Assembly: GCA_944391495.1 (NCBI GenBank)
Contig: CALXTU010000004.1
Location: 5,041 to 69,040, forward strand
Origin: an uncultured Alphaproteobacteria bacterium
GTDB taxonomy: Bacteria; Pseudomonadota; Alphaproteobacteria; RF32; CAG-239
Length of the DNA: 64,000 bases
Direction: 5' to 3'
Part shown: positions 1 through 56,138 of the stretch, piece after piece
Layout: every line of letters begins with the position of its first letter
Numbering within the stretch: the stretch's first letter is position 1
Notes under the pieces: generated by a model
Seen by the model: the letters and a program-made list of their open reading frames with translations, nothing else
The model's database searches: none
What the model was told of the DNA's origin: nothing
Program-made: the position numbers and the translations under genes

Positions 1-100
1 CAGAGAATTCGTTCCGGTCATAAATATCAAAGAACAGTTTATTATTGTTGAGATGATGCACTTTGCCGCAGACGAAGAGGGCGAAGGGAATGAGGGTTAA
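1..100 (+). CDS. 3' end of upstream gene, probably rimM (partial)
   Basis: Open frame from the window edge to TAA at 98-100. It overlaps the trmD start, as in rpsP-rimM-trmD-rplS operons. Confidence 0.3.
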
Positions 101-779
101 GGTCTTAACCATATTTCCCGAACTCTTTCCCGGATTTTTGGGAGCTTCGCTGACCGGCAGGGCTTTAGATGAAGGCAAGTGGTCTTTAGAGGCGGTCAAC
201 ATCCGCGATTATGCGTTTGACAAGCATGCCTCGGTAGACGATACCCCATCGGGCGGCGGCGCCGGCATGGTTATGCGGGCCGATGTTCTGGGGGCGGCGC
301 TCAAAGACAACTATCGCGGCGGAAGGCTTTTGAATATGTCGCCGCGCGGTGTGCCTTTAACTCAGGCCAAAGTTCGCGAACTGGCGGCCGAAGAAGAACT
401 GACAATCATCTGTTCCCGTTTTGAGGGGATAGACGAGAGGGTTCTGGAAGCCTATGGTGCCGAAGATGTCTCGGTCGGCGATTATATCCTGACCGGCGGC
501 GAGCAGGCGGCGATGATTATGCTTGATGCCGTTGTCCGGTTGCTTCCCGGAGTTTTGGGAAATGCGGAATCCGCCGTATCCGAAAGCTTTGAGGATAATT
601 TGCTGGAATATCCGCAGTATACGCGGCCTACCGAATGGCAGGGACGGCAGATACCGGAAATTTTGCTTTCGGGACATCATCAAAAAATAGCCGAGTGGCG
701 TCATCTCCAATCGGAACTTGTAACCGAACAACGCAGGCCGGACCTGTGGAAAAAATATCTTGCATCTAAAAAGATTTAG
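90..779 (+). CDS. trmD: tRNA (guanine37-N1)-methyltransferase TrmD
   Basis: The translation matches TrmD ([13 protein letters not shown]..., SPOUT knot region). ATG at 90 is preferred over the TTG that opens the ORF at 63. rplS follows. Confidence 0.9.
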
Positions 780-819
780 GTGTAAAAGCTAACCAACCGT
801 AATGAAAAAGGGTAAAACG

Positions 820-1215
820 ATGAACATTATTGAAAACATTGAAAAAGAGCAGATGGAAAAGTTGCTCGAAGGCAAAAATCTTCCCAACTTTAAACCCGGC
901 GATACTCTTAGAGTTCATACCAAAGTAAAAGAGGGTGACAGAGAACGTATCCAGGTTTATGAGGGTGTTTGCATTGCGCGTAAAAACGATGGTTTGAACT
1001 CTTCTTTCACCGTCCGCAAAATTTCTTTCGGCGAGGGTGTAGAAAGAGTATTCCCGCTGTATTCGCCGAATGTTGCGAAGATTGAGGTTTCGCGTATTGG
1101 TAAAGTACGTCGTGCCAAATTGTACTTCCTGCGTGCTTTGCGCGGTCGTTCGGCTCGTATTGCCGACGATTTGTCCGCAACGGCTAAGGCTAAAGACGAA
1201 GAAAAAAGCGAATAA
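820..1215 (+). CDS. rplS: 50S ribosomal protein L19
   Basis: The [11 protein letters not shown]...RVHTKVKEG... sequence is L19. An AAGGG ribosome-binding site precedes ATG 820. Confidence 0.9.
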
Positions 1216-1392: not shown

Positions 1393-1717
1393 AATTTTGT
1401 CCTCTTTTTAGAACAGAAAGGAATATCAAGGATGATAGGGGAAAAAACAACATTCCGGCAACAGCTGGAAAAATTACAAAGAGCGGGCGAGGAAAAGAGG
1501 CTTAAAGCATTGCAGGCCAAATATCCGAACCCGAATAATATTGATTACGGCAATATGAGCCTGCGCGACGAGTTGCAAACACGTTTTGATTTAGACGAGA
1601 TGAACAATCTCTCAACCAAGCTCGGCGCACCGAGCGGTTTGGCGGTCGGCAATGATAACGGCGCGCCGGTTCAAGACTTGAGCCAACGCCTGTCCGGCAA
1701 CGATACAGAGGCACAAA
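1393..1717. repeat. Repeat Z copy 1, covering the 5' leader and conserved toxin N-terminal domain
   Basis: Near-identical to 2628-2950. The first 33 codons are identical and the next ~60 codons are similar. Confidence 0.8.
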
Positions 1718-2214
1718 ACAGCTTTTATAAGCCTTTATCCAGACCAAATAAAGATAATGCCAATTGTTATATGACATTTGATGGACAAAGTTTAAATCTT
1801 GTAGGCGGCAATCCAACACATCAATACACATTAAATGCGATGTCCGGAAATCCTGATTATCAGGCCAGACAATATCAGTCAAAAAAGTATTTGGGTCCGA
1901 TACCGGAAGGAACATATTATGCCGCGCAAAATCAAAGACAAATAATTGATCCGATAAATGCCGCAGCAGGCATTATAAATGAAGGAAATTGGCGTAAATC
2001 TATCCCCGCATGGGGATTAAGACGAGTTTGGCTGCAGCCAGACATAAACACAAATACTTATGGTCGAAGTGGCTTTTCAATTCACGGAGGTTGGAAAAAA
2101 GGATCGGCAGGTTGCATAGATATTCCATGGCAAACCGGAAAGCTTAGTCGGTATTTAGATGATTGTCAGGATAACGTTCCGGTTTATGTAAAATATACCA
2201 AGGAGAAATGGTGA
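1432..2214 (+). CDS. Polymorphic toxin A: conserved N-terminal domain plus Tlde1/DUF2778-like C-terminal domain
   Basis: Residues 1-95 are shared with the ORF at 2665. The C-terminus carries GPIPEGTYY and GFSIHGGWKKGSAGCID, a His-x10-Cys arrangement like the LD-transpeptidase-fold effector Tlde1. AAGGA ribosome-binding site. Confidence 0.6.
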   Translation: MIGEKTTFRQQLEKLQRAGEEKRLKALQAKYPNPNNIDYGNMSLRDELQTRFDLDEMNNLSTKLGAPSGLAVGNDNGAPVQDLSQRLSGNDTEAQNSFYKPLSRPNKDNANCYMTFDGQSLNLVGGNPTHQYTLNAMSGNPDYQARQYQSKKYLGPIPEGTYYAAQNQRQIIDPINAAAGIINEGNWRKSIPAWGLRRVWLQPDINTNTYGRSGFSIHGGWKKGSAGCIDIPWQTGKLSRYLDDCQDNVPVYVKYTKEKW

Positions 2215-2564
2215 TGAACAAAGCCAAAGTGTATGAAAGGTTGCAGAAAATAAAAACATTTATCAAGCTTTTCAAGTGGTATATCTGTTTTTATATTTTA
2301 TACTTTTTGATATTAGTAAAAGAATATTTTTATCCGCCGGCCAAAGACGATCAAATTTGGGGTGCCCAAGAAACGATGAGCGATTGGAATTACCAGAATC
2401 AAGAGTTGTATCTTGAGTCAATAAAAATAGATATTGGAATTTCAATTTTAATTTTTTTGTTGGCGCTTAGCAATATGCAAAACTATCCGCGAATAGCCAA
2501 ACTGATTTTGCTATATCCATGGTTTATGGCACTATGGAATATAATTGAGTATGAATATATGTAA
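2214..2564 (+). CDS. Putative immunity protein A (N-terminal TM helix), translationally coupled to toxin A
   Basis: ATG 2214 overlaps the toxin stop (TGATG), 8 nt after AGGAG. It is a predicted membrane protein whose last ~29 codons lie inside repeat X. Confidence 0.5.
   Translation: MNKAKVYERLQKIKTFIKLFKWYICFYILYFLILVKEYFYPPAKDDQIWGAQETMSDWNYQNQELYLESIKIDIGISILIFLLALSNMQNYPRIAKLILLYPWFMALWNIIEYEYM
2472..2558. repeat. Repeat X copy 1
   Basis: 87 bp, ~95% identical to 4308-4396. Confidence 0.8.
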
Positions 2565-2574
2565 ATTAATAATC

Positions 2575-2633
2575 ATCCAGGCGGTAACATAAAATAAAAA
2601 CATATTTTGCAAAACAACCATAGATTTAATTTT
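2575..2633. repeat. Repeat Y copy 1
   Basis: 59 bp, similar to 3908-3966 (atccRRgcggtaacataaaat...agatttaatttt). Confidence 0.75.
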
Positions 2634-2950
2634 CCGTTTTTTAGAACAGAAAGGAATATCAAGGATGATAGGGGAAAAAACAACATTCCGGCAACAGCTG
2701 GAAAAATTACAAAGAGCGGGCGAGGAAAAGAGGCTTAAAGCATTGCAGGCCAAATATCCGAACCCTGATAATATTGACTACGGCAATATGAGCCTGCGCA
2801 ATGAATTGCAGACGCGCTTTGATCTGAACGAGATGAACAACCTATCCGCCAAACTCGGCACATCAAACGGTTTTACTGTTGGTAATGATAACAGCGCACC
2901 GGTTCAAGACTTGAGCCAACGCCTGTCCGGCAATGACAAAGGAACACAAA
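2628..2950. repeat. Repeat Z copy 2
   Basis: See copy 1. Confidence 0.8.
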
Positions 2951-3324
2951 ACGGTTTTTATGCTGCTCTCGGCAAACCGACGCCAAATTACATTCCGAAA
3001 AGCCATATCCTGGAAATAGCTGGTGCCGGCCTGCAAGGTTTCGGTAAAGGAATTGAAAGTGGAATGTTAACGGCGGTTAATGGTGCGACAAACGACTACT
3101 ATAATAAATTAAGTTCAAAATATTTAGGGGATTATTATAACAAGAATCAACGTCAAATTCAGCGGCAAGCGGAGGCGGCAGGCTTAGGTCAAGCCAACCA
3201 GATAGCTAATGATGTCATAGAATACGGTGCAAGTGCCTGGGCAGATACCAAAACCGCCGGTCTTTTATCAAGTAATTTATTTAATCAACCATGGGCGACA
3301 AATTGGTTGAAGAAGTTAAAATAA
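2665..3324 (+). CDS. Polymorphic toxin B: same N-terminal domain, Gly/Asn/Tyr-rich glycine-zipper-like C-terminus
   Basis: The N-terminal ~95 aa are near-identical to toxin A. The C-terminus (AGAGLQGFGKGIESG...) is unrelated to toxin A. Confidence 0.55.
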   Translation: MIGEKTTFRQQLEKLQRAGEEKRLKALQAKYPNPDNIDYGNMSLRNELQTRFDLNEMNNLSAKLGTSNGFTVGNDNSAPVQDLSQRLSGNDKGTQNGFYAALGKPTPNYIPKSHILEIAGAGLQGFGKGIESGMLTAVNGATNDYYNKLSSKYLGDYYNKNQRQIQRQAEAAGLGQANQIANDVIEYGASAWADTKTAGLLSSNLFNQPWATNWLKKLK

Positions 3325-3391
3325 TTTAGTAAACAAATAAGAGGCAGATATTGATTAACGATGTCTGCCTCAACAAATAAAGGAAACACTA

Positions 3392-3925
3392 ATGCCCTAT
3401 CCAGATAAACAAGCAATATTCAGCCGCATAAAAGAACTTTTGTTGCACTATGTTTTTTCATTCAAGGGTTTTGCAAACGGCTTGCAATTTGGTATAGCCA
3501 CTTCAATAGCATTTATATCTAATGATATTTTAAGCAAGTTGGATGTTTCTTTAACAATACGCAATTTTATTTATGGCTATATAATGCTGGTCGCATTTCA
3601 AAAAAGATGTCGGGATATCAACATCAAAGGGACATTAATAATAATTTTTATAACACTTGCTTTCTTTTATGTGGCAATATTTGAAGCACTTAAGCTTGAT
3701 ATGTATGGTTATTTGGATACAATATCAAAATTTTTCCTTCACGCATATGCATTTCTTGTTCTGACCATGATGATTTTACCATCATCACAAATCAAAAATG
3801 CCGAATTGACCAGCCCGTTGTTAAAATACCCGTATTTATACGTGTTAGTGTGTATTGGCATATGCCTTTGGGGTATATCCGTGGTATCAGAACATCAAGA
3901 TGAAATTATCCGAGCGGTAACATAA
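3392..3925 (+). CDS. Putative immunity protein B (polytopic membrane protein)
   Basis: 177 aa with 4-5 hydrophobic helices and an AAAGGA ribosome-binding site. It lies directly downstream of toxin B, and its 3' end runs into repeat Y. Confidence 0.45.
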   Translation: MPYPDKQAIFSRIKELLLHYVFSFKGFANGLQFGIATSIAFISNDILSKLDVSLTIRNFIYGYIMLVAFQKRCRDINIKGTLIIIFITLAFFYVAIFEALKLDMYGYLDTISKFFLHAYAFLVLTMMILPSSQIKNAELTSPLLKYPYLYVLVCIGICLWGISVVSEHQDEIIRAVT

Positions 3926-3966
3926 AATGAAAACATATTTTACGAGGCAACCAAAGATTTAATTTT
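3908..3966. repeat. Repeat Y copy 2
   Basis: See copy 1. Confidence 0.75.
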
Positions 3967-4018
3967 AATAAGTCTAATTCTCGAGACGCTTGTAATTCAT
4001 ATAGAGTTAATGGAATAA

Positions 4019-4294
4019 ATGATAAGTATTAACCCCCAAAAAATAACACAATATCTGCGGAAGGCAATTAAAATGGCAAGCCTTGTTATCGGACTGACCA
4101 TAATAGCCATAATCTGCTATATTATAGGTTATTTGCTAACAGATAAGGAGGGATGGTGTTTAAGTGAAGGACATGGTGTTTGGGATGCCGACAGACAAGA
4201 ATGCAGGCAAGATTGTCTGACTTGGCGTAAAGATATCGGTTGTGTTCCGATAACTGAAGAGAATATCAGAAAAAAAGAAAAAGGATTATTATAA
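4019..4294 (+). CDS. Small TM plus 4-Cys protein (possible orphan immunity protein)
   Basis: 91 aa with one TM helix and a Cys-rich tail. It sits between repeat Y copy 2 and repeat X copy 2. Confidence 0.3.
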   Translation: MISINPQKITQYLRKAIKMASLVIGLTIIAIICYIIGYLLTDKEGWCLSEGHGVWDADRQECRQDCLTWRKDIGCVPITEENIRKKEKGLL

Positions 4295-4307
4295 AGCCCG
4301 ATAGTAT

Positions 4308-4396
4308 AATATGCAAAACTATCCGCGATTGGCCAAACTGATTTTGCTATATCCATGGTTTATGGCGCTATGGAATATAATTGAGTATGAATATTT
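4308..4396. repeat. Repeat X copy 2 (terminal copy next to hisS)
   Basis: See copy 1. Confidence 0.8.
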
Positions 4397-4432
4397 GCGA
4401 AAGCAGAATGTTAACGGCAGGAAAGGGGCAAA

Positions 4433-5743
4433 TCAGTTTAACAGAACCTCGGCCAGCGCGGCGGCATCAAGGCTTTTTTGCTCTCCGGATGCCATATCTT
4501 TGAGGCTGTAAAGCTTGGTCTTGGCTTCCTCTTCGCCGATGATAATCAGATACGGCACGCCGATTTTGTTGGCATATTCCATTTTCTTTTTGAACTTGCA
4601 TTGCCGATACATAACGTCAACCGGAATATTCTTTTGCCGCAGTTTGCCGGCCAGGCTGACGGCCTCATCGGTGAAAGCGGCGTCTTGCGTGATAATCAGC
4701 GCCTTGTCGGGCGTCAGAACCTTAATTGGCAGCAGATTATTGGCGCGCAACTGGTCAAACAACCGTGTCAGGCCGATAGATATGCCGACGCCGGGAAATT
4801 TCTTGTCCATAAACACCGAAGACAAATTATCATAGCGGCCGCCGGAACAAACCGAGCCGAACTGCGGATATTCGTCAAAAAAGGTCTCATAAACCGTGCC
4901 GGTATAATAGTCCAACCCGCGGGTGATACTCAGATCAATCTGCATATTAGTCGCCGGCAGTCCGAGGTTTTGCGCCTGCGAAACAACCGTCTTGAGCTCG
5001 TTCAGGCCTTCGGCAAACACACCGTCTTTAATGTCAAAACCTTCAAGTTTTGCTATAATTTGCTCGTTTGAACCGTTGATTTTGATAAAATCAAGCAATC
5101 TTTGCCGTTGCGCTTCTTCCAGTCCCAAATCATTGAGCTCGCCCAAAAAGGCCTCTTCGGGAATTTTTTTGATTTTATCAACCAGCCGCAAGACGTCGAC
5201 CGTTTTGTCGGCAATGCCGAGATATTCCAAAAAGCCGCTCAAAAGCTTACGGTTGTTGATATAGATTTTAAAAGCCGGCAGCTCCAGCTTGCTGAATACC
5301 GTATAAATCACCGCCAGAACTTCCGCGTCATAAATAATATTCAGCTCGTCGCGGTCGATAATGTCGATATCGCATTGATAAAATTCGCGGAACCGGCCTT
5401 TTTGCGGGCGTTCGCCGCGGTATACCTTGCCGATTTGATAACGTTTGAACGGAAAGGTCAGTTCATTGTTATAGAGCGCGACATATTTGGCCAGCGGCAC
5501 CGTCAGGTCAAAACGCATGGCAATATCGGTGTCACCTTTTTTAAACTCGTAAATTTGTTTTTCCGTCTCGCCGCCGGATTTTGAGAGCAAAACTTCCGCC
5601 AGCTCCAACACCGGCGTATCAAGCGGCGCAAATCCGAATAATTCGTAAGTATGGGCAATGACGGCTTTCATGTGATTAAAAACAAGTTGCTCCTGCGGCA
5701 AAAGTTCCATAAACCCCTGTAACGTACGTGCGGTCATTGTCAT
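4433..5743 (-). CDS. hisS: Histidine--tRNA ligase
   Basis: Class II aaRS motifs are present. The start is taken at the internal Met (MTMTARTLQGF) after GGAGA; the longer ORF upstream has no similarity. Confidence 0.9.
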   Translation of the reverse strand: MTMTARTLQGFMELLPQEQLVFNHMKAVIAHTYELFGFAPLDTPVLELAEVLLSKSGGETEKQIYEFKKGDTDIAMRFDLTVPLAKYVALYNNELTFPFKRYQIGKVYRGERPQKGRFREFYQCDIDIIDRDELNIIYDAEVLAVIYTVFSKLELPAFKIYINNRKLLSGFLEYLGIADKTVDVLRLVDKIKKIPEEAFLGELNDLGLEEAQRQRLLDFIKINGSNEQIIAKLEGFDIKDGVFAEGLNELKTVVSQAQNLGLPATNMQIDLSITRGLDYYTGTVYETFFDEYPQFGSVCSGGRYDNLSSVFMDKKFPGVGISIGLTRLFDQLRANNLLPIKVLTPDKALIITQDAAFTDEAVSLAGKLRQKNIPVDVMYRQCKFKKKMEYANKIGVPYLIIIGEEEAKTKLYSLKDMASGEQKSLDAAALAEVLLN

Positions 5744-5879
5744 ATCTCCGTTAAAATTAAATTCAGACAAACTTAAAATTACAGCCATTTTAACACTTCT
5801 GTCAAGCAGCTTATGCCGAAACTTTAAGTTTTTAAAACAAAAAACTCCCCGGCCTTTCACAAGACGGGGAGAAAAATTT

Positions 5880-7169
5880 TTATTTTTTTCCGTGATATTT
5901 CATTTGCGGCGCCAGATAGGCACAGGGACCGAACAGCAGAGCAGTGTATTGCTTCTGGTTCAGATTGTTTCTGCCGCCCCAGAGAAGTATGGCTTGTTTG
6001 TTTCCGCTGCGCATGAGCTTGATGATATGTGCATCATCATAAAAGCCCTCCGCGGCAAATATCTCGGCCCAGGCAGGGTTTTCCAGCGACATATCCTGAA
6101 CTTTGCCGCCGATTTTTTTGCCGTTGATTTTAATACATTTCAGCAACCCTGCGACATCATTTCTCGGTCCTTGTTCTGCCAGAGGTTTGAACCACTTAGC
6201 CTGAGCATTCTCTTCCATAATGTCAAAGAGTCGTTGTTGCAGTTCCGGTGCCGCCAAATCATACAAGGTTAAAGGCAGTTTGTCTTCTTTGGCCAGATTA
6301 AGCAGCGTTTCCGGCCGGCAAAGCTTGTCCGAGAGTCTGACGGAAATCTCCTTCGGCAAAGCGGTCAGAAGTTGATCTGCTGCTGCTCGATGCCGGTCGT
6401 TGATTAATCGTTCAATCAACCGTTCGACAAGGTCGTATTGCCGGAGCCTCAGCCAGTAATTGGCCATTTTATTGGCAACGGCCAAAGAGTCGGCATCGTC
6501 AGCCCAGACGTTAAAGTCAGGAAGCTGCACCAGCTGTTCTGCCGGTATGTTCGGCCGGTAAGTCTTGTTTTTGAAAAGCAGGGACATTGCCGCTGCAGCT
6601 GTTTTCTGCAGATCGCCGGTAGCAAATAAGGCGTCTTGCCTTAATATTTTGTCCAGACCTTGCAGGATATCAACGCTGTAACCGACAACCAGCCGGCCGA
6701 ACAGCATCGTTCTGGCTTCTCCGCTCAGTCTTGCGACGGTTTTGTCATAGAAGCTTCCCGATTGTTTCTTAAGCAGTACGGGAACCCACTTTTTGTCGCT
6801 GTTGCAGACATGGACAATCTCGTCGTTTGACAGCGTGTAGCCTTTACTGGCAACGGCTCTGTCTTGTGCCGTCTCATTGTTAAAAGCAGCATAAAATTCC
6901 TCGCTGTTGCGGATTTCGTCAACAAACAGCTCCCAGAGTTTCTCGTCTTTCAGGCATTTTAGCCTGGTTGCCGGCCGCCAGAGGTGTTCAGCCATCCGGC
7001 GGAAGCGGTAATTTGGTGTCTTGCTGAGGATTTTCATCTCTCTTTTGTGGGAGAGAAGAAAATACGAGGCATAAAAGTTGCCTTTTTTTGTGTGACGTAA
7101 GGCCCATGCCGGAAATAATTTAACAACCGGAGCGACGGCTGAAACAGCCATTGTTTTAATTGAATACAT
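5880..7169 (-). CDS. Hypothetical protein (429 aa)
   Basis: Long ORF with native-looking codon usage. No recognisable domain. Confidence 0.45.
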   Translation of the reverse strand: MYSIKTMAVSAVAPVVKLFPAWALRHTKKGNFYASYFLLSHKREMKILSKTPNYRFRRMAEHLWRPATRLKCLKDEKLWELFVDEIRNSEEFYAAFNNETAQDRAVASKGYTLSNDEIVHVCNSDKKWVPVLLKKQSGSFYDKTVARLSGEARTMLFGRLVVGYSVDILQGLDKILRQDALFATGDLQKTAAAAMSLLFKNKTYRPNIPAEQLVQLPDFNVWADDADSLAVANKMANYWLRLRQYDLVERLIERLINDRHRAAADQLLTALPKEISVRLSDKLCRPETLLNLAKEDKLPLTLYDLAAPELQQRLFDIMEENAQAKWFKPLAEQGPRNDVAGLLKCIKINGKKIGGKVQDMSLENPAWAEIFAAEGFYDDAHIIKLMRSGNKQAILLWGGRNNLNQKQYTALLFGPCAYLAPQMKYHGKK

Positions 7170-7467
7170 AAAATAAAAAATTTAAGTTTTTAACAATCTT
7201 GTACGCGTTTCGCACAAGAGCCTCAAAACAACCGTAACCCTCGCTCGGCAAATACCCGGACGCTTTCCGCAAAATGCAAAAAACAGCCAAATATCCGGTC
7301 AAACTAATAGTCACAATAATCTTGAAACGATAGCAATATACCATTTTTGTCTAAATATGTCAACATATAAGCAGCGGATTTTTTGCAAAAACATCTTGGT
7401 CTGATTAAAAAAAGTGTTATAACTGGTACGGGTAGGTTTTTAAGTAAATAAGTAAAGAAGATGCAAA

Positions 7468-8472
7468 ATGCTCAAATACGCGCTTATCGGTTATCAAAAT
7501 ACTTTGGCTCATAATATTCTCGATTTGCTGGCAGCAAGGGGAGTTGCCGCGGCGGACGTCGGCGTCTTTGCCGCGAAGTTTACCGGCCGGCCCAAAGTTT
7601 CGTTCGGTGATAATGAGCTTGAGGTGCAGTCTTTACATGACTTGAAACCCGAAGAATTTGCCGCGGTTATTTTTACTGCCGACGAAAATGCCGCCGCGCA
7701 ATATGCGCCGAAATTTGCCGCTGCCGGTGCCAAAGTCATTAATGCAACGATGGCTTTGGAAGGGGAGGCGGAAATCCCGATGATTGTCGGCGGGGTTAAC
7801 GACGCGTCGCTTGCCGCCGCCCGCAAAGGCATTATCAATGTGCCGCAGCCGCCGGTGGTGCAGCTTTTGGGTGCTTTGGCCGGTCTGACGACCAAATACC
7901 GGATTAAAAGCATCCGCCTGACGGCTTTTATGGCTGCCGATACGGAAGGTCAGGACGGTATGAGCGAGCTTTATAACGCCACCCGTCGTATTTTGATGAA
8001 TGATACGGCCTCGTCAACCGGCGGGCTGTTTCATAAAACACTGGCCTTTAACATTATTCCGCAGGCCGGTTCTTTTATCGGCGAAGAAACACTGGCCGAA
8101 TGGCTCTACAATTCGCACGGCAAACAAGTTTTGGGCGACGGTGTCAAAATTCACGCCAACTGCGCCGTTGTTCCGGTGTTTGTCGGCACGGGCCAATATG
8201 TTAACGTCGAAACGTTTGATGAAATCGACGCCGACCTGGCGCGTGAGGATATCAAAAAAGCCAAAGGCGTCTTGGTGGTAGACCGCCAGGAAGACGGCGG
8301 CTGTGCGTCGTTGACGGATGTTCAGGGCGAGAGCAGCATTTTTGTCAGCCGCATCCGTCAGGACATGACGGTCGAAAACGGCATCAGCCTGTGGGTTGCC
8401 GGCGATGCCGGCCGGATTGCCGCACAAAATATTCTGGCATTGTTAAAACAATTTCTGAAAAAGGATAAATAA
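7468..8472 (+). CDS. Aspartate-semialdehyde dehydrogenase-fold protein lacking the catalytic residues (pseudoenzyme)
   Basis: Aligns along its length with short-form Asd, but GATGAVG is GYQNTLA, NPNCST is NVPQPPV, STYQAVSGAG is TAFMAADTEG and the GHS histidine is GTG. The Asd C-terminal dimerisation motif (LWVAGD...) is retained. Confidence 0.6.
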   Translation: MLKYALIGYQNTLAHNILDLLAARGVAAADVGVFAAKFTGRPKVSFGDNELEVQSLHDLKPEEFAAVIFTADENAAAQYAPKFAAAGAKVINATMALEGEAEIPMIVGGVNDASLAAARKGIINVPQPPVVQLLGALAGLTTKYRIKSIRLTAFMAADTEGQDGMSELYNATRRILMNDTASSTGGLFHKTLAFNIIPQAGSFIGEETLAEWLYNSHGKQVLGDGVKIHANCAVVPVFVGTGQYVNVETFDEIDADLAREDIKKAKGVLVVDRQEDGGCASLTDVQGESSIFVSRIRQDMTVENGISLWVAGDAGRIAAQNILALLKQFLKKDK

Positions 8473-10901
8473 TGAAAAAATGGCTTGCGTTTTTGTTATG
8501 TTTTCTGCTGGCATCACCGTTATGTCTGGCGGCATCGTCCCGGCTTGATGACCTGGGCAACGATTTAAGTTACAGCAGGATATCGTCCCGCCTCGGGAAA
8601 ATAGAAAAGCTGACGCAGGCCGAAAAGCCGGATATTGACGCCATGGTCGACGAGTTGTCGTATCTGAACGAAACCGCCGCCGCACTTGATACCAGCCGCC
8701 GGAGCACCTCCGAAGCCATCGCCCGTACGGAAAAGCGGATTGAGGCTTTGGGCGAAGTCAACGATGATTTGCCCGAGGCAAGGGTTATTTCGCAAAAACG
8801 CCGGGAATATAACCAAGAGCTTGCTGATGAAAAAGCCCGCCTGTCCGAGATAGAAATATTGACGGCCAAAATAGATGAAATAAGTTTGAAAATTTTTGAT
8901 ATCCGCAACCAGGAGCTTTGGGGTAATCTGCTCAATTCCGAAGGCGCGTTGATTAATCCGGGTGTGTTCTGGCGGGCCGGCAGCGAGTTGGTCGCGTTCG
9001 GAATGGATATCGTCAAGTCGCCGTTTGTCCGTTATGCCGAACTGACGGCAGACCAGAAAGTATCTCTGCGCAACAATATTATCCTGATGGTTGTGGTCAT
9101 CACCTTTATCAGTCTGCTCGGTCTTTGGCTGCGGCGTTTTGTCATTCGCCGTTGGGGATATCGCGTTGATATCGAGGCGCCGCGTCTGGGGCGTAAAATC
9201 ATAGCCGCTTTTGCCGTCTGGTGTGCCTACGGCATCATTCCGACGGCCATCATCGGGTTCTGCCTTTACTGGATTTTAACCGCCGGTATTTTAAGCAGCG
9301 GCTTTTTCGGCGTGGTTTTGTCAAGCGCATTGTATTATCTGCTCTATATCATCATCGGCCGGGCCACCTGTCGGGTTGTCTTTACGCCGTATAATGAAAA
9401 ATGGCGTCTGATTAATATGCCGACTGACAAAGCCCGCAGGTTAACCAGAGTTATTTACCTGACCATCGCTCTGGTCGGTATCATGGCATTCCTGCAGCAT
9501 ATTGTCGCGGTCGGCAAATATTCGCTGGAGCTTTTGTCTTGCCTGCTGGCCATATCCTCCGTGATTAAGGCATTTTGCGTGGTATGGATTGCGCATATTT
9601 ACTTTGCGCCGCTTTCGACCGAGCTTGAGGAAGATGACGACAACGGCACTGAAGATACCGAGGAAGACGAGAAAGAAGGCAGGGCTTTCCGTATCGGAAT
9701 GTTAATCAGCCTTTTTGCACTGGGTATTATCGGGCTGTCGATGTTCGGCTATCCGCGTCTGGCATCGTTTATTATCAACAATTCGATTTTGTCGGCGATT
9801 GTTATAGCGGTGTTCAGCATTTTGCGCCGGTTGATATACGATGTCGTTCAGCATGTTTTGCTGATGGGGCTTTGGGTCAAAACTTTCCGGATGCGCCGGC
9901 GCTTTTTGCGCAAGCTTGATTTTTGGTTTGGTATTATCGCCGAACCCGTATTGATATTGCTGCTGCTCGGTGCTTTGTTGCTGTTGTGGGGTGTACCGTT
10001 TGACGTGCTTAAAGGGGCGGTTTATAAAGCCGTTTCTGGTTTTATGGTCGGCGGAATTGAAATCTCGCTGATATCCATTTTCTGGGGCGTTGTGATTTTT
10101 GTCCTCTGCTTATGGATTATCAGATTCGTACGCTACCGCATTGAGTTCCGGCTCCTGGAAAAAACCAATATCGACGCCGGCACCAAACATTCGCTGGCCT
10201 CAGGCTTTGCCTATATTGCCTATGTCCTGGCGGGTATCCTGTCCATCGCCGTTATGGGCGGCAACTTAACCAACATTGCCCTGATTGCCGGTGCGTTGTC
10301 GGTTGGTGTCGGCTTGGGCTTGCAGGATATCGTCAACAACTTCATGTCGGGTATCGTTATGCTGTTTGAGCGCCCGATTAAAGTCGGCGACTGGGTTGTC
10401 ATCAACGGCGAGGAAGGCAAGGTAAAGCAGATTAACATTCGCTCGACCGAGGTTGAAACCTTTAACCGCCACAGCGTCATTATTCCGAACTCGACGGTTC
10501 TGTCCAATTCGGTGACCAACCTGACGCACGAAAACAACTGGGTTCGCTATTCGGTCAAAGTCGGCGTTGCTTACGGTACCGATGTCGAAAAGGTTAAAAA
10601 CATTTTGTTGGAATGTGCCGCTTCACACCCCAAAGTATCCAAAAAGCAGGCTCCCTATGTTTTGTTCCAGGATTTCGGCGAGAGCAGTCTTGATTTTGAG
10701 CTGCGCTTTTACGTCACCGATATCTGGAACGGCTGGACGGCGCCGAGTGATGTCCGCTATACAATCAACCGCCGGTTTATTGAAGAAGGCATAGAAATAC
10801 CGTTCCGCCAGATGGTTATCCACCACGGTAGTTCGGTTGCCGTTGAAACCGACAGTCAGTTCTATGCCAGAAAAGGAGCTAAGAAAAAAAATGCTGATTA
10901 A
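8472..10901 (+). CDS. MscS-family mechanosensitive channel (MscK/KefA-like) with signal peptide
   Basis: The C-terminal MscS core is present (GLGLQDIVNNFMSGIVMLFERPIKVGDWV). It has a large N-terminal periplasmic/coiled-coil domain, and the start overlaps the previous stop. Confidence 0.8.
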   Translation: MKKWLAFLLCFLLASPLCLAASSRLDDLGNDLSYSRISSRLGKIEKLTQAEKPDIDAMVDELSYLNETAAALDTSRRSTSEAIARTEKRIEALGEVNDDLPEARVISQKRREYNQELADEKARLSEIEILTAKIDEISLKIFDIRNQELWGNLLNSEGALINPGVFWRAGSELVAFGMDIVKSPFVRYAELTADQKVSLRNNIILMVVVITFISLLGLWLRRFVIRRWGYRVDIEAPRLGRKIIAAFAVWCAYGIIPTAIIGFCLYWILTAGILSSGFFGVVLSSALYYLLYIIIGRATCRVVFTPYNEKWRLINMPTDKARRLTRVIYLTIALVGIMAFLQHIVAVGKYSLELLSCLLAISSVIKAFCVVWIAHIYFAPLSTELEEDDDNGTEDTEEDEKEGRAFRIGMLISLFALGIIGLSMFGYPRLASFIINNSILSAIVIAVFSILRRLIYDVVQHVLLMGLWVKTFRMRRRFLRKLDFWFGIIAEPVLILLLLGALLLLWGVPFDVLKGAVYKAVSGFMVGGIEISLISIFWGVVIFVLCLWIIRFVRYRIEFRLLEKTNIDAGTKHSLASGFAYIAYVLAGILSIAVMGGNLTNIALIAGALSVGVGLGLQDIVNNFMSGIVMLFERPIKVGDWVVINGEEGKVKQINIRSTEVETFNRHSVIIPNSTVLSNSVTNLTHENNWVRYSVKVGVAYGTDVEKVKNILLECAASHPKVSKKQAPYVLFQDFGESSLDFELRFYVTDIWNGWTAPSDVRYTINRRFIEEGIEIPFRQMVIHHGSSVAVETDSQFYARKGAKKKNAD

Positions 10902-12207
10902 AGATTTGGCCGATAAAAACATCATCATCTGGGGGCTCGGCACTGAGGGCCGTGCCGTTAAAGACTACCTCGAAAAACATCGGCTCGGCCGCAATATATG
11001 GATTTATAATGATGCCGACGGCGTTGAGCGTCTGAACGAACTGGCCTCCCGGGCCGATGTTCTGGTGCGTTCTCCCGGGGTGAGTATTTATAAGCCGGAG
11101 TTTCTGCGCTTAAAGGAGCAGGGGCTTGCCATAACCTCCAGCACCAACCTGTTTTTGGCCGAGATGAAAGCCAACCGTCCGCACACCAGAGTTATCGGTG
11201 TCACCGGTTCCAAGGGTAAATCAACCAGTGTCAGCATGATGTATCATATGATGCAAGGGCTGGGGTTGAAAGTAGCCCTCGGCGGCAACATCGGTAAAGC
11301 GCTGATAGAACTGGTCGACGAGGATAACGATTACGTTATCGGCGAATTTTCGAGTTATCAGGCGTCGGATTTGGAAAATTCGCCCGATGTGGTAATGTTT
11401 ACCAACCTGTTTTCAGTGCATACCGACTGGCACGGCGGGCATGAGGGCTATTGCCGCGACAAAGTGCATCTGGCCGCCAAGGCCGGTATGGCGGTGGTTA
11501 ACGCCGAAAACGCCGAGCTGATGCACTACACGTCGGATTTGCCGCACCGTATGTTTTACCAAAAAGAGGAGGGCTTTCACGCCGTCGGCAAAGAGCTCTA
11601 TTATCAGAACGAGCCGGTCTGCAATATAGATTCGCTGCGGATAAGCGGCAATCACAACATGGCCAATCTGGCCGGCGTTATGACGGTTTTGGACTATCTG
11701 GGACTGGACTGGCGGCGGGCGTTGAGCTTTTTGCCGTCGTTTGAGCCGCTGCCGCACCGCCTGCAAAAAATCGGCCGCGTTGGCAATATCCTGTTCATCA
11801 ACGACAGCATTTCCACCGCGCCGGAAGCGGCTATCGGCGGTATGCAGAGTTTTGACGACACTATGGCGATAATATCCGGCGGAATTGAAAACAAACAGGA
11901 CTATACCGACTACGCCAAATTTATCGAGGCCAACCCCAAGGTTAAGGTGGCGGTAACGCTGTTCCAATGCGGTCATCAGATTGCCGAAAGTATCAGAAAA
12001 TATGTCCGCCGGCCGGATTTTAAATTGATTGAGGCCGAGAGCTTGCAAGAAGCTGTCAACGCCGCCTATAAAGAATTGCAAAAAGTCGGCGGCACGCTGG
12101 TTTTGTTCTCGCCGACAGCGCCGAGTTTCGGCTATTACAAAAACTTTATGGAGCGCGGCGAAGACTTTATTAATTGTGTTAAAAAGCTTGCCGCCGGTGT
12201 CAAATAA
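10891..12207 (+). CDS. murD: Mur ligase family protein, MurD-like
   Basis: GLGTEG, the GVTGSKGKST P-loop, EFSSYQ and NDSISTAP motifs are present. The AGGAG ribosome-binding site and start overlap the 3' end of the channel gene by 11 nt. Confidence 0.65.
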   Translation: MLIKDLADKNIIIWGLGTEGRAVKDYLEKHRLGRNIWIYNDADGVERLNELASRADVLVRSPGVSIYKPEFLRLKEQGLAITSSTNLFLAEMKANRPHTRVIGVTGSKGKSTSVSMMYHMMQGLGLKVALGGNIGKALIELVDEDNDYVIGEFSSYQASDLENSPDVVMFTNLFSVHTDWHGGHEGYCRDKVHLAAKAGMAVVNAENAELMHYTSDLPHRMFYQKEEGFHAVGKELYYQNEPVCNIDSLRISGNHNMANLAGVMTVLDYLGLDWRRALSFLPSFEPLPHRLQKIGRVGNILFINDSISTAPEAAIGGMQSFDDTMAIISGGIENKQDYTDYAKFIEANPKVKVAVTLFQCGHQIAESIRKYVRRPDFKLIEAESLQEAVNAAYKELQKVGGTLVLFSPTAPSFGYYKNFMERGEDFINCVKKLAAGVK

Positions 12208-12209
12208 AA

Positions 12210-12233
12210 AAACACCCGTACGGGTGTTTTTTT
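12210..12233 (+). terminator. Rho-independent terminator
   Basis: acacccg-ta-cgggtgt hairpin followed by a T-tract. Confidence 0.7.
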
Positions 12234-12257
12234 ATAAAAATGGTGCGAGATACTATG

Positions 12258-12290
12258 CAATTATCGGACTAATTTTTATAATGATTTTAA
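12258..12290. repeat. Direct repeat flanking fic (left)
   Basis: gcaattatcggactaatttttat recurs, 23 nt perfect, at 13026-13059. Confidence 0.7.
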
Positions 12291-12392
12291 ACAGCTTTAC
12301 CATAAAATTGAACTTATTAATTGTTAGATTTCTAATAATCATCATTAAAACTTAATTGCTTTTTAGTTTTTTATGTTTAAAATTAAATAAAC

Positions 12393-13019
12393 GTGAAAAA
12401 GAGGGAAATAATGGTTTTAGAAAATAAGTTAAATATCACCAATCAATTAGAGTTGAATAAAATAGAAGAAAAGCTTAGTAAAGAAAAAGCTAAAAAACTT
12501 TTTGACAGTGGTAAAATAAATACTCTTAGAGTCGGTACTTTTGCCGGATTGAAGCAGATTCACAAATTTTTATTTGAAGATATTTATGATTTTGCCGGAA
12601 AAATACGGACTGTTAATCTTTCTAAAGGAAATTTTAGATTTGCGCCGGTTATGTACTTAGAGCAAGCCTTAAAACATATAGATAAAATGCCCCAATCAAC
12701 CTTTGATGAAATTGTTGAAAAATATGTTGAAATGAATATAGCTCATCCTTTTAGAGAAGGAAATGGTCGCGCTACCCGAATTTGGCTGGATTTAATCTTC
12801 AAAAAAGAACTAAAAATGGTGGTTGATTGGAATAAAATTGATAAATCCGACTATCTGTCCGCTATGGAAAGAAGCCCAATTAAAGATATTGAAATAAAAC
12901 ATCTCTTAAAAAATGCCCTTACTGATAGAATTAATGAAAGAGAAGTATTCATGAAAGGAATTGATGTTAGTTATTATTACGAAGGCTATGATGAATACGA
13001 CATCCATAAGCTGATGTAA
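12393..13019 (+). CDS. fic: Fic/Doc family protein (AMPylator-type)
   Basis: Canonical HPFREGNGR Fic motif. Size and layout resemble E. coli Fic. An alternative start exists at 12411. Confidence 0.85.
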
Positions 13020-13025
13020 GATTAA

Positions 13026-13059
13026 GCAATTATCGGACTAATTTTTATGATAATTTTAA
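13026..13059. repeat. Direct repeat flanking fic (right)
   Basis: See left copy. Confidence 0.7.
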
Positions 13060-13412
13060 GCTTTTGAGTAAGAAAATTGAAAATTGTATGCGATGATTGG
13101 CTTACCTTGAGGATATATATTTCTTTTTATCTCTTTTGAATTTTTATAAATTATTTCTTGTAACAAAGTTCCATCAGGCCTGTAACCTCGACTAATGCCA
13201 TCCATTTTGCCGTTTTTATACTGAGCCTCCAAAAGAACTTTTCCATTCGGATAATAGACATACACAATACCATTTATAGGTTCTTTATTAACATTATAGC
13301 GTATTCCATCTATTAGTTTTGTATTTTCCATAGTATACCTATCTTGAGCTAAACAATTACAGCTCAAGATAGATATAAAAAAAATGATTTTCAAAATATT
13401 ATTCATCTTCAA
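13056..13412 (-). CDS. YwqK-family (MORN-variant repeat) secreted protein, immunity-like
   Basis: Signal peptide followed by repeated YxNGK...G..Y units (YYPNGKVLLEAQYKNGKMDG...). Confidence 0.55.
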   Translation of the reverse strand: MKMNNILKIIFFISILSCNCLAQDRYTMENTKLIDGIRYNVNKEPINGIVYVYYPNGKVLLEAQYKNGKMDGISRGYRPDGTLLQEIIYKNSKEIKRNIYPQGKPIIAYNFQFSYSKA

Positions 13413-14337
13413 CTAAATGTTTACATTTTTTCCATTCTTTATGAATATTATCATAAAAATACCAGTTTTCTTTAACATTTTCTGCATATCCTAAAATGTC
13501 AGTACTGGCAGCATTGATACTAGGATAGCTTTTGCCGTTTTTGGGGCAAATGATTTTATCTCCTTCTTTTTTTAATTCGTAGATATTTCCTTTTTGATTA
13601 CCCCTTTTCATACTTCTTTTAATAATGGTCCCTTCGGGAATTTTTTTAGTATCAATTTGACCTTTATATGTTCTGAATATCGGAGAAACAAACTCGGAAA
13701 TAACATCTTTATTATCAGTTTTAAGCTCAGGAGTATTTTCAAATTTTTTAGCATCAAAATTGAAATCTATAGGTGTTTGTAACAAATTCTCATATTTTTC
13801 GGAGAATGTGACACCATCTTGAATATAGTGTATTAAATCAATTAAATTATTAAGATCTGTTCTATATGGAAGTATTAAAGAGTCTTCATATCCATTTGAT
13901 TCTCGAGTTTCTAATTCTGTAGATATAAAATCCCTACATACATTTAATATATTATAAACTTTTTGAATCTCTTTGATTGTTCTTGCAAGTTTTGGATTTG
14001 TTGTTGTTGCTAATAATTCATATTCTCCATTTTCTAAAGCAGAATAAATTTCATAAGTATCTTGTTTTTTTACAATAATATTAGATTGAGGAATGTTATT
14101 ATATGTTTGTATTAAATCAAGCATCAATTGGCAAGCTAATGCTTGTTTTCCTAATTTTGATATATCGGTTCTTCCTGATAGCCAATTATTTGCGGTAGAT
14201 TCGGAAACATCTAATAAATTAGAAATTTCTTCAGCATCACTATGTTTGTTTAAGTCAAAATTATCAACATCAATAGCTTTATTTTTTGCTATTTCTTTTA
14301 AAAATTTTTCAGCTTCATAATATGTAAAGTTTTTCAT
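13399..14337 (-). CDS. HTH (XRE-like) domain protein with unknown C-terminal domain
   Basis: A helix-turn-helix at about residues 30-65. The 3' end overlaps the ywqK-like gene. Confidence 0.45.
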   Translation of the reverse strand: MKNFTYYEAEKFLKEIAKNKAIDVDNFDLNKHSDAEEISNLLDVSESTANNWLSGRTDISKLGKQALACQLMLDLIQTYNNIPQSNIIVKKQDTYEIYSALENGEYELLATTTNPKLARTIKEIQKVYNILNVCRDFISTELETRESNGYEDSLILPYRTDLNNLIDLIHYIQDGVTFSEKYENLLQTPIDFNFDAKKFENTPELKTDNKDVISEFVSPIFRTYKGQIDTKKIPEGTIIKRSMKRGNQKGNIYELKKEGDKIICPKNGKSYPSINAASTDILGYAENVKENWYFYDNIHKEWKKCKHLVEDE

Positions 14338-54515: not shown

Positions 54516-56138
54516 ATGGATCATAAACAATTTCTTCTGGATGAATACAAAAGAGAACGTCAAGAACCGGCATATTTCTCTTTGCCGGACGGGGAGAGTG
54601 TGCTTATGCCCTGCGTCTACCACGGCGATAAAGACGCATTTGTTGATGACTGGCTGTCTTTTCAGAATGAAGAACTGCAGAAATATGATACTCACAATGC
54701 CGCCAACCCGGACAATCCCATAGAAATTCCCGAGCCGTTGAAATATGACGACCTTTATATTTTCCCGCCGTTAAAAGGAGTCCTTAAAAACTGGTCGGAG
54801 CAAAAGATTATCAACAAAGCACTGCGCACGGCCATGCGTAAATACAAAGCGGCAATAAAACAGACGGCGCAAGTTGCCAAAATATATCCGAAAGATGATT
54901 TTATTACCAGTCTGAACAAGGATGCCGTTTCCAGATTAAAAAAACTGCATAACGACTATAAAAAAGAAAAATTAAAACAAAACCTGGCCAGGACTTTCAA
55001 ATTCACGGCTAAACAAACGGCCAATATTCTGGCCGGTGCAACCGGAGCTCTGCCGGCCGCCGCATATTATCTGTTGGATAAAAAAGTGCGCTTTGCCAAA
55101 AGCAAAACCAAGAGTTTTATTGATAATACAGCTTTGCCGTATATTCGCAGAGGTGTTGCAAAGTTCCTGGTCTTGGTATGTCTTACGGGAGCAGTCAACT
55201 TAACGTCTGTCATCAAAGAAAAGCATCAGGACAAAATTGAGCAGCAAATGCTTCAAGCCCGTGAGCAAGCTGAAAAAGAAGCCTTTTTTGCCAAATATCA
55301 AACCACTAACGAGGCCTTTTATAAAAATTATAAACAGGCCAAAAACTTAGAGCAGGAATTTATCTGTCTGTTGTCCTGTTATGAAGATTATCATGAACAG
55401 GCTTATAAATGCCAGGCCGGCAAATGGACCGTCGGCTACGGATCACGGCAGTTGGCTGATGGTACGCCTGTTGTTAAAGGAACCACCGTCACCCGGAAAG
55501 ACGCCGCGGCGGCCGTTACCAAGCATATGGAAAAATACGTCTATCCTCAGCTTTGTCATATTAATAAAGAACTTTCGCCGGAACAGCTGATGGCTGTCAA
55601 TATGTTTATCTACAACACGGACGAAAACGCTTTCCGAAATTCAAAAGTCTGCCGTGCCATTAACGACAATGCCGATGAAACCAAAATGCGGGAGGCCTTT
55701 TCTTACTATCGCAGCGTTAACGGCAAGCGCAGTTACGGTCTGATCAACCGTCGCGGTTTTGAAGGCTATTTATGGAGCTGCGGCAATCTGGCCGATGTTT
55801 TGCTGATGAGCCCCAATCTGGCCGGCAGTCAGGATATCCGCTATTTCGAATATCCAGATACCGATAGTCGCAATCCGCATGAAAATCCGGACGAAACTTT
55901 TGTCGTGCGGCAAAAAGATGAAGTAAAACGGGATTTGAAAAAATTTAAAGTTTCCAATCTTTCGCAGAGCATCTTAGGCAATACCACACCGGAAATTTGT
56001 GATAATTTGTGTGATAAATACGGAATTTATGAAGAAAACAATCAAATCAAACAACTGCAGGTTATCACGGTCGATAATTCTCAAACCGGCAAGGCCATTA
56101 CTTTTGCTCAGGCTCAAAGGTTAAAGGAAAGTCGTTAA
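54516..56138 (+). CDS. Multidomain protein with an internal T4-lysozyme-like (GH24) domain
   Basis: E-x8-C-x5-T spacing (YEDYHEQAYKCQAGKWTVGYGS) and a downstream GH24-like helix (SPEQLMAVNMFIYN). No signal peptide. The N-terminal ~290 aa have no recognisable similarity. Confidence 0.5.
   Translation: MDHKQFLLDEYKRERQEPAYFSLPDGESVLMPCVYHGDKDAFVDDWLSFQNEELQKYDTHNAANPDNPIEIPEPLKYDDLYIFPPLKGVLKNWSEQKIINKALRTAMRKYKAAIKQTAQVAKIYPKDDFITSLNKDAVSRLKKLHNDYKKEKLKQNLARTFKFTAKQTANILAGATGALPAAAYYLLDKKVRFAKSKTKSFIDNTALPYIRRGVAKFLVLVCLTGAVNLTSVIKEKHQDKIEQQMLQAREQAEKEAFFAKYQTTNEAFYKNYKQAKNLEQEFICLLSCYEDYHEQAYKCQAGKWTVGYGSRQLADGTPVVKGTTVTRKDAAAAVTKHMEKYVYPQLCHINKELSPEQLMAVNMFIYNTDENAFRNSKVCRAINDNADETKMREAFSYYRSVNGKRSYGLINRRGFEGYLWSCGNLADVLLMSPNLAGSQDIRYFEYPDTDSRNPHENPDETFVVRQKDEVKRDLKKFKVSNLSQSILGNTTPEICDNLCDKYGIYEENNQIKQLQVITVDNSQTGKAITFAQAQRLKESR

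Follow-up and report, generated by a model that had tools for sequence, protein, structure and literature searches.

The DNA analysed here is a stretch of 64,000 nucleotides (nt) from an uncultured alphaproteobacterium (contig CALXTU010000004.1), called the window below. At positions 7468..8472 of its forward strand it encodes a 334-amino-acid (aa) protein which, according to its open reading frame, Pfam matches and AlphaFold2 model, has the fold of aspartate-semialdehyde dehydrogenase (Asd) without the catalytic or NADP-binding residues. Judged by sequence alignment, every residue known to be necessary for Asd chemistry or for NADP binding is replaced across the clade to which the protein belongs. 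The protein, here termed pAsd, is by sequence a pseudoenzyme. It is under purifying selection, occupies the chromosomal position of a canonical asd gene, and is encoded immediately upstream of a gene for an MscK-like mechanosensitive channel. We infer that pAsd is expressed and that it has a non-catalytic role. With a probability of about 0.5, this role is to act with the channel, which it would assist or regulate from the cytoplasm. The evidence for such an association is gene order.

Fold, lost motifs and selection

The open reading frame, its strand and its length are exactly those given in an initial annotation of the stretch, and its start codon is the ATG at 7468. Of the good upstream context that had been noted there, the purine-rich, Shine-Dalgarno-like AAGAAG (7455..7460, forward strand, read from the sequence, 7 nt 5' of the start codon) stands, but the ATG inside AAGAAGATG (7461-7463) is out of frame. 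Both Asd domains of Pfam are matched, PF02774 (Semialdhyde_dhC) with 78.5 bits and PF01118 (Semialdhyde_dh) with 29.3 bits. Full-length HMMER alignments to solved Asd structures bear out the block-by-block correspondence described earlier; the best structure match is Vibrio cholerae Asd2 (2qz9), with E=1.4e-29 over residues 4-325. The AlphaFold2 monomer model, for which an alignment of 29 clade sequences served as input, is confident, with a predicted local distance difference test (pLDDT) score of 84 and a predicted template modelling (pTM) score of 0.84. In a Foldseek comparison of this model with the PDB, the top 50 matches are all Asd or USG-1 proteins, with TM scores of 0.85 for 2qz9 and 0.84 for the USG-1 homologue 2hjs. 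The model thus predicts a two-domain Asd fold, composed of a Rossmann domain and an alpha/beta dimerisation and catalytic domain. Sequence identity is 31-36% to the nearest canonical alphaproteobacterial Asd proteins and 22-26% to the solved structures, and pAsd stays under the cut-off of all eight NCBIfam equivalog models for Asd (best PRK14874, 194 versus 223; asd_B, 167 versus 324).

Compared with Asd structures, pAsd has GYQNTLA for GATGAVG, VPQPPV for NPNCST, MAADTEG for QSVSGAG and GT for GH. The phosphate-binding Arg (FR to LE), the Glu/Lys pair and Asp92 (to Asn) are also lost. The position of the catalytic Cys is taken by Pro128 (Pro in 82% of the clade), in a loop without any Cys. 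The only cysteines of pAsd are C232 and C279, and the former lies in the CxxVP strand, where canonical Asd has a non-catalytic Cys as well. Thr241 replaces the general acid/base His and Met155 the Gln of QSxSGAG, both at positions that vary in the clade, and the Ser of SGAG has become Asp158 in 100% of the clade. In the GxxGxxG loop, the first Gly alone is conserved in the clade. The phosphate-binding Arg is replaced by Glu98, again at a variable position, the Glu by a variable residue at 217, and the Lys by Gln220 in 88% of the clade. Across 65 clade sequences the Cys, His, Gln, Arg, Glu, Lys and GxxGxxG are all replaced. No shifted Cys was found within the loop in either of the two groups of channel-linked proteins described below (clusters 1 and 3), and the alignments show no displaced catalytic Cys or His, so that a mere shift of these residues is rejected.

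The initial annotation had stated that every catalytic motif is replaced. All four substitutions that it listed were seen, but some motifs are kept. The most prominent is R-I-R (R295 and R297; 8350..8358, forward strand, from the alignment), the substrate-carboxylate arginine motif of Asd, in which the carboxylate-binding Arg is R267 in E. coli numbering. The SRIR arginines R295 and R297 are invariant in an alignment of 29 sequences that are 42-85% identical to the query (alignment A1), and at least 85% conserved both in the pAsd clade and in canonical Asd. AFN..IP (193-198), E211, W309 and D313 (LW..D) are also common to the two. The designation as a pseudoenzyme is supported by the clade-wide replacements and by the equivalog scores.

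In a search space of 5.8 billion proteins, about 68 clusters are 43-98% identical to pAsd. A gap follows, down to about 36%, where canonical alphaproteobacterial Asd starts (for example that of Sphingomonas). The Cys, the His and the nucleotide loop are absent throughout the clade. When GTDB was scanned with one genome for each species, relatives turned up in at least 139 species, and more than 100 species have the full-length reading frame intact. The 80 loci retrieved all come from uncultured Alphaproteobacteria, among them 'Candidatus Scatocola faecipullorum' and 'uncultured Azospirillum sp. UMGS', that live in the gut of humans, ruminants, deer, rabbit, mouse or chicken; we take these organisms to be probably members of the GTDB order RF32. 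The ratio of nonsynonymous to synonymous substitution rates (dN/dS) of pAsd, measured against its 85%-identical relatives, is 0.14, equal in effect to that of hisS (0.13); the values are 0.08 for the channel gene and 0.09 for murD. Alignment A1 contains 40 invariant columns. The gene is thus under purifying selection, and the earlier description of the protein as conserved holds.

The constraint is distributed differently from that in canonical Asd. The N-terminal, degenerate Rossmann domain (aa 1-130; 7468..7857, forward strand, from the alignments), which carries GYQNTLA in place of GxxGxxG, shows the lowest conservation of the whole protein among clade members (0.48-0.70 per block, versus 0.75-0.90 in the C-terminal half). 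Its pLDDT is 88-94 for the most part and falls to 84 at aa 111-120. In contrast, block 161-180 has a conservation of 0.90 in the pAsd clade versus 0.47 in canonical Asd, and block 261-280 of 0.81 versus 0.36. By this comparison of alignments, the constraint has shifted away from the Rossmann half and now lies on aa 161-320. The segment aa 158-212 (7939..8103, forward strand) is hyper-conserved according to the invariant columns of alignment A1 and is a candidate interaction surface. Invariant within it are D158, G164, ELYN167-170, T172, R173, F188, K190, AFN193-195, PQ198-199, FIGEET203-208, E211 and W212. This most invariant stretch overlaps aa 160-193, the one region of the monomer that is modelled poorly (pLDDT below 50). 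Conservation together with poor modelling would be expected for a surface that is disordered until a partner binds. As a caveat, two 2r00 chains in the Foldseek listing are about 30 residues shorter than full length, and the low-confidence region may also be flexible in genuine Asd.

The asd slot and the channel gene

The gene downstream of pAsd (8472..10901, forward strand) encodes a mechanosensitive channel of 809 aa, with matches to PF00924 and PF21082 at aa 619-776. The product has a signal peptide, a periplasmic coiled-coil region of about 180 aa, about 10 to 11 transmembrane (TM) helices according to hydropathy, and an MscS core. It scores 211 bits against a cut-off of 991 in the NCBIfam MscK model, with only the C-terminal core aligned. 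By these sequence criteria the channel is MscK-like in architecture, but does not appear to be an MscK orthologue. Between TM helices, at aa 386-403 (window 9630-9700), it contains a strongly acidic stretch, EEDDDNGTEDTEEDEKE. The channel frames of loci L080 (about 5500-5650) and L077, both contigs of metagenome-assembled genomes, have in-frame stops near the 3' end, which may be assembly errors or real truncations.

The stop codon of pAsd had been reported to overlap the start of the channel gene. This is the case: the two genes share the sequence TAATG (8470..8474, forward strand), with the stop codon at 8470-8472, the start codon at 8472-8474 and an overlap of 1 nt. In 78 of the 80 genome loci, the channel gene stands downstream of the Asd-like gene and on its strand; the two remaining loci reach the end of their contigs. 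The initial annotation had raised the question whether an MscS-family gene is always the neighbour; a channel gene is found downstream in every locus with downstream sequence. In the 80 sources measured, the two genes are always between -4 and +82 nt apart (median about 17). The pairing is kept where flanking genes are gone (hisS is present in only about half of the loci and murD in about two thirds). Conversely, in a scan of metagenome contigs anchored on the channel, a Cys-less Asd-like gene lies directly 5' of every full-length channel orthologue (at least 39% identity) for which upstream sequence is available. No Asd-like partner accompanies the matches to the MscS core alone, and no MscS-family neighbour of canonical asd was found in the four loci examined. 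Outside the clade, the gene downstream of that for the Cys-less Asd-like protein P0126 (locus L090) encodes a product similar to the N-terminal region of the channel (E=1e-9).

The cytoplasmic C-terminal tail of the channel carries the motif QFYA (aa 796-799; 10857..10868, forward strand), which is invariant in alignment A2 and is a candidate docking motif. It is present in 14/14 tails of cluster 1 and 56/67 tails of cluster 3, and in 1/46 tails of relatives without an Asd-like gene found upstream; its occurrence thus follows that of the Asd-like partner. The single tail of the latter kind may come from a truncated contig of the same clade (L129 or L139, both broken off at the contig start, with 68-69% identity).

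The position of pAsd on the chromosome points to its origin. Canonical alphaproteobacterial asd lies downstream of rimM-trmD-rplS, at times after leuC-leuD-leuB (L085, L087, L175). In the window species, the gene order is ffh-rpsP-rimM-trmD-rplS, variable small genes, hisS (reverse strand), a gene of unknown function (reverse strand), pAsd, channel and murD. The window itself begins with trmD-rplS (90..1215, forward strand; gene calls of locus L081, mapped onto the window at an offset of 2533), the end of the ffh cluster, which marks the ancestral asd neighbourhood. An rplS gene is found upstream of pAsd, on the same strand, in 13 of the 14 cluster-1 loci with enough flank, and six cluster-3 loci have it upstream at a distance of only about 290 nt from the Asd-like gene. 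The same slot also holds two Cys-less Asd-like genes from outside the clade, those for P0126 after leuB and for P0151 after rplS. Because pAsd is in the canonical slot (rimM-trmD-rplS-[leuCDB]-asd), it most probably represents the asd gene of the lineage itself, which degenerated where it stood. A second Asd, DapB, LeuB or LeuC was not found in 1.69 Mb of DNA of these lineages, which covers the locus neighbourhoods only and therefore cannot show that the genomes lack them. The 64-kb window contains no aspartate-pathway genes.

All channel-linked partners fall into two groups on clustering. Cluster 1, composed of the window protein and those of loci L001-L017, is the most eroded, with the consensus GynNaLa, vINAT, NVPhP, aDfEGQDGMSELYN and KQV. 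The larger sister cluster 3 (90 sequences, P0121 type) is less eroded: it keeps GRE, VIDCS and AETKK, and has lost the Cys, His, Gln and Arg. P0126, with leuB upstream, retains more (GATESMG, VIDTSSAFR, YQSVS) and is without the canonical Cys and His. Canonical Asd, the P0126 type, the P0121 type and the window type thus form a graded natural series from enzyme to non-enzyme in place, which should be useful for the study of pseudoenzyme origins.

Loss of the Cys is common among Asd homologues. Approximately 70 of the 141 best full-length representatives, taken from the top 150 matches (P0121-P0264) of an exhaustive profile search, have no Cys at the aligned position, and many of these are also without the His or the P-loop. 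In a neighbour-joining tree, the Cys-less forms appear as a long-branched assemblage plus scattered independent losses. The tree is crude (BLOSUM distances, long branches) and was used only for the grouping of the clade plus P0121. Since about half of the representatives are Cys-less, such homologues make up a large, heterogeneous and essentially unstudied population. One of them, P0123 in locus L089 (380-1839), has AVPSPQA and FIGEGM with an intact GAAGMMG loop. Its gene overlaps the start of a dapB-like gene with the motif HHRWKKDAPSG, so that a 'dead' Asd occurs here in a diaminopimelate-pathway context.

Possible roles of pAsd

We propose that an ancestral asd at the trmD-rplS position has wholly lost catalysis and would persist as a folded, non-enzymatic protein, which is probably dimeric. 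It would be co-transcribed with the channel gene and, in the window species, is probably also translationally coupled to it. Scans of positions 7100-12500 for promoters and terminators gave results at the level of chance (7 found versus 7.1 expected, and 9 versus 7.8, respectively). In the C-terminal domain, the surface that has newly come under constraint (aa 158-212 and 261-299) may contact the cytoplasmic vestibule of the channel or its QFYA tail, and this contact might tune gating or assembly of the channel, by analogy with the action of KefF on KefC. A more specific version, in which pAsd is a soluble accessory subunit, the first known for an MscS-family channel, and docks on the vestibule or on the QFYA tail to gate solute release, is less likely than not and is put forward tentatively.

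Several findings weigh against a role at the channel. A distant full-length relative of the channel (L124, 36% identity) has an aminopeptidase-like gene upstream and no partner, and therefore this type of channel does not intrinsically need one. The partner is kept by the 11 of 67 cluster-3 channels that are without the QFYA tail. In the mirror-tree comparison, pAsd correlates with the channel at r=0.84, which does not exceed the value of 0.90 for the channel and MurD; shared phylogeny dominates the signal. Cys-less Asd-like proteins without a channel exist, namely P0151 and P0123. Finally, the pairing is confined to one phylogenetic neighbourhood, and inherited synteny is therefore not fully separable from function.

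Alternatively, pAsd may be a dead orthologue kept for a role that has nothing to do with the channel, such as a prior moonlighting or structural function of alphaproteobacterial Asd, or the regulation of a genuine Asd elsewhere by heterodimer formation. The adjacency to the channel gene would then be inherited operon structure. Cys-less Asd-like proteins that are encoded in the asd slot but have no channel neighbour (P0151 in L094) or that are encoded next to dapB (P0123 in L089), the frequent and heterogeneous loss of the Cys among the top profile matches, the conservation of the dimer-domain motifs AFN, W309 and D313, and a mirror-tree signal that is not specific for the channel are all consistent with this explanation. 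However, the pairing is kept at a spacing of at most 82 nt across sequences of about 40% identity while other neighbours have been shuffled, a partner is present at every full-length channel orthologue, and the locus neighbourhoods, 1.69 Mb in all, contain no second Asd homologue. On balance, we regard a channel-unrelated role as somewhat unlikely. A new activity on the old scaffold has less in its favour. Asd could have been turned into a neo-enzyme, with a new, cofactor-independent activity, or into a sensor for a small molecule, for example a carboxylate ligand such as an amino acid, the presence of which might be reported to the channel. The rebuilt pocket would consist of the invariant D158, Q162, R173, K190, H229, N231, R295 and R297. 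This would fit the invariance of the carboxylate-binding R295 and R297, the presence of D158 in place of the SGAG serine throughout the clade, and the many newly fixed polar residues in the C-terminal domain; MscS-family channels are solute-release valves, which would suit a sensor. But the nucleotide loop has disappeared, matches to families, to the PDB and in the literature gave no pointer to another chemistry, and the other former pocket positions (127, 128, 155, 217 and 241) vary in the clade, which speaks against a conserved active site there. A neo-enzyme or sensor is thus improbable.

The USG-1 family, which the initial annotation had named for comparison, would offer a more ordinary explanation. 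The homologue 2hjs is also without NPNC, QSVSGAG and GH and, as described above, is structurally similar to pAsd, and the USG branch (Asd2/USG) is called 'non-functional', without further information, in a 2025 review (PMC12041015). However, pAsd reaches only 119.6 bits versus a cut-off of 273 in PRK08040 and 113.7 versus 284 in PRK05671, and it has lost the P-loop, which USG-1 proteins keep as GATGSVG. On these two grounds, membership in the family is rejected. Moreover, the nearest canonical relatives of pAsd are alphaproteobacterial short-form Asd proteins, and pAsd lies in the asd slot. Known contexts of usg genes are usg-truA and asd-usg-fimV, neither of which was seen within about 10 kb. 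That pAsd is an ordinary USG-1 protein is accordingly very unlikely. Decay of a pseudogene, or an artefact of gene calling, might have been suspected from the disappearance of all catalytic residues. Either is refuted by the intact reading frame in more than 100 species, the dN/dS of 0.14, the 40 invariant columns and the confident fold prediction, and we assign them practically no probability. An association of pAsd with the channel is the reading that we prefer.

Neighbouring genes, significance and known systems

Downstream of the channel gene, and overlapping its 3' end by 11 nt, lies murD (10891..12207, forward strand, after the gene call of L081; TIGR01087, 272.9 bits, above the cut-off of 211.95), the third gene of the apparent operon in this species. 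Bacteria usually hold murD inside the division and cell wall (dcw) cluster; no other Mur ligase or division gene is present in the 64-kb window. Between rplS and pAsd, hisS and a gene for a protein of 423-429 aa without a family match (together 4433..7169, reverse strand, from the gene calls) are variable neighbours outside the conserved core. The latter gene (window 5880-7169, reverse strand) is transcribed divergently from pAsd, and its product has no Pfam or NCBIfam match. It was found by tblastn in only eight cluster-1 loci, with 33-47% identity, and is therefore fast-evolving.

The stretch between rplS and hisS (window 1432-4400) varies between strains. In the window and in L081 (3965-6827) it encodes a protein with a Tlde1 domain (PF10908) and several small proteins without family matches, and in L082 (6278-6830) and L083 a different small gene stands in their place. 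A second strain-variable island lies downstream of murD (window 12393-14337). The window and L081 (14944-16870) have a gene for a Fic-domain protein there, together with MORN-like and unknown genes, and L082 (14911-17287) and L083 have an HI1420-downstream/helix-turn-helix pair, which is toxin-antitoxin-like, and a gene for an unknown protein of 420 aa. Further downstream, a 540-aa protein (window 54516-56138) with a phage-lysozyme domain (PF00959, aa 289-414) and a long, unmatched N-terminal region is encoded among housekeeping genes. The L124 contig starts (3-821) with an open reading frame of many tandem 9-aa units (MTGVKGIGD), unrelated to pAsd.

The literature contains passing mention of dead Asd-like proteins. 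Our searches found nothing on Asd as a pseudoenzyme or on USG-1, and only community surveys on RF32. What appears to be new is the apparent origin of the family from an orthologue in place, its graded erosion, and the invariant operon with an MscK-like channel. At least one annotation pipeline (JGI) names these proteins 'aspartate-semialdehyde dehydrogenase', and therefore metabolic reconstructions of these common gut Alphaproteobacteria could be wrong. The step credited in error could be the entry to lysine, diaminopimelate, threonine and methionine synthesis. If the coupling to the channel is real, pAsd would be the first soluble regulatory partner for MscS-family channels, with aa 158-212 and the QFYA tail as the candidate interface. 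The dead descendant of an essential enzyme of amino acid biosynthesis would then have been recruited in widespread, uncultured gut Alphaproteobacteria.

Among known proteins, pAsd is most directly comparable to short-form Asd (Asd2 or asd_B, represented by V. cholerae Asd2, 2qz9, and Sphingomonas P0081). The two have the same two-domain fold, the same length and the same slot downstream of trmD-rplS, and they share the SRIR arginines, AFN..IP and LW..D. Unlike short-form Asd, pAsd is without the GxxGxxG, Cys, His, Gln, phosphate-binding Arg and Glu/Lys pair, and its constraint lies on new surfaces of the C-terminal domain. The USG-1 proteins (E. coli Usg, P. aeruginosa PA3116, PDB 2hjs) are Asd paralogues that resemble pAsd in having the Asd fold with replaced Cys, His and Gln motifs. 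In 2hjs, these read SPCAV, LSVSSLG and GD, and GATGSVG is kept. USG-1 thus retains the nucleotide loop and a Cys one position earlier (in SPCAV), whereas pAsd has GYQNTLA and VPQPP. Furthermore, USG-1 is a paralogue beside asd, whereas pAsd appears to be derived from an asd orthologue and is tied to a channel gene.

On the side of the channel, E. coli MscK (KefA) and MscM share the overall architecture of signal peptide, periplasmic coiled-coil, TM helices and MscS core. The channel described here is shorter (809 aa versus about 1,100 for MscK), aligns in the core only, and has the clade-specific QFYA tail. MscK is not known to have a soluble partner. A dehydrogenase scaffold without catalytic residues is also found in other pseudoenzymes derived from dehydrogenases, such as vertebrate ALDH16, which is thought to act via protein-protein interaction (PMC12041015). 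It belongs to another superfamily than pAsd and has no link to a channel. The closest parallel for the proposed role is KefF, an ancillary subunit with an oxidoreductase fold, which KefC requires for full activation and binds through its cytoplasmic domain (PMC2920069). KefF differs from pAsd in keeping flavin mononucleotide and a conserved active site, and KefC is a KTN-regulated antiporter rather than an MscS-type channel. The interaction of KefF is proven, whereas that of pAsd would follow from gene order. The genetic arrangement is nevertheless the same as in KefF-KefC and KefG-KefB, where a soluble protein with an enzyme fold is encoded immediately upstream of a membrane protein for ion flux and expressed together with it: pAsd lies directly upstream of its channel, with an overlap of 1 nt in the window and a gap of -4 to +82 nt in the 80 sources.

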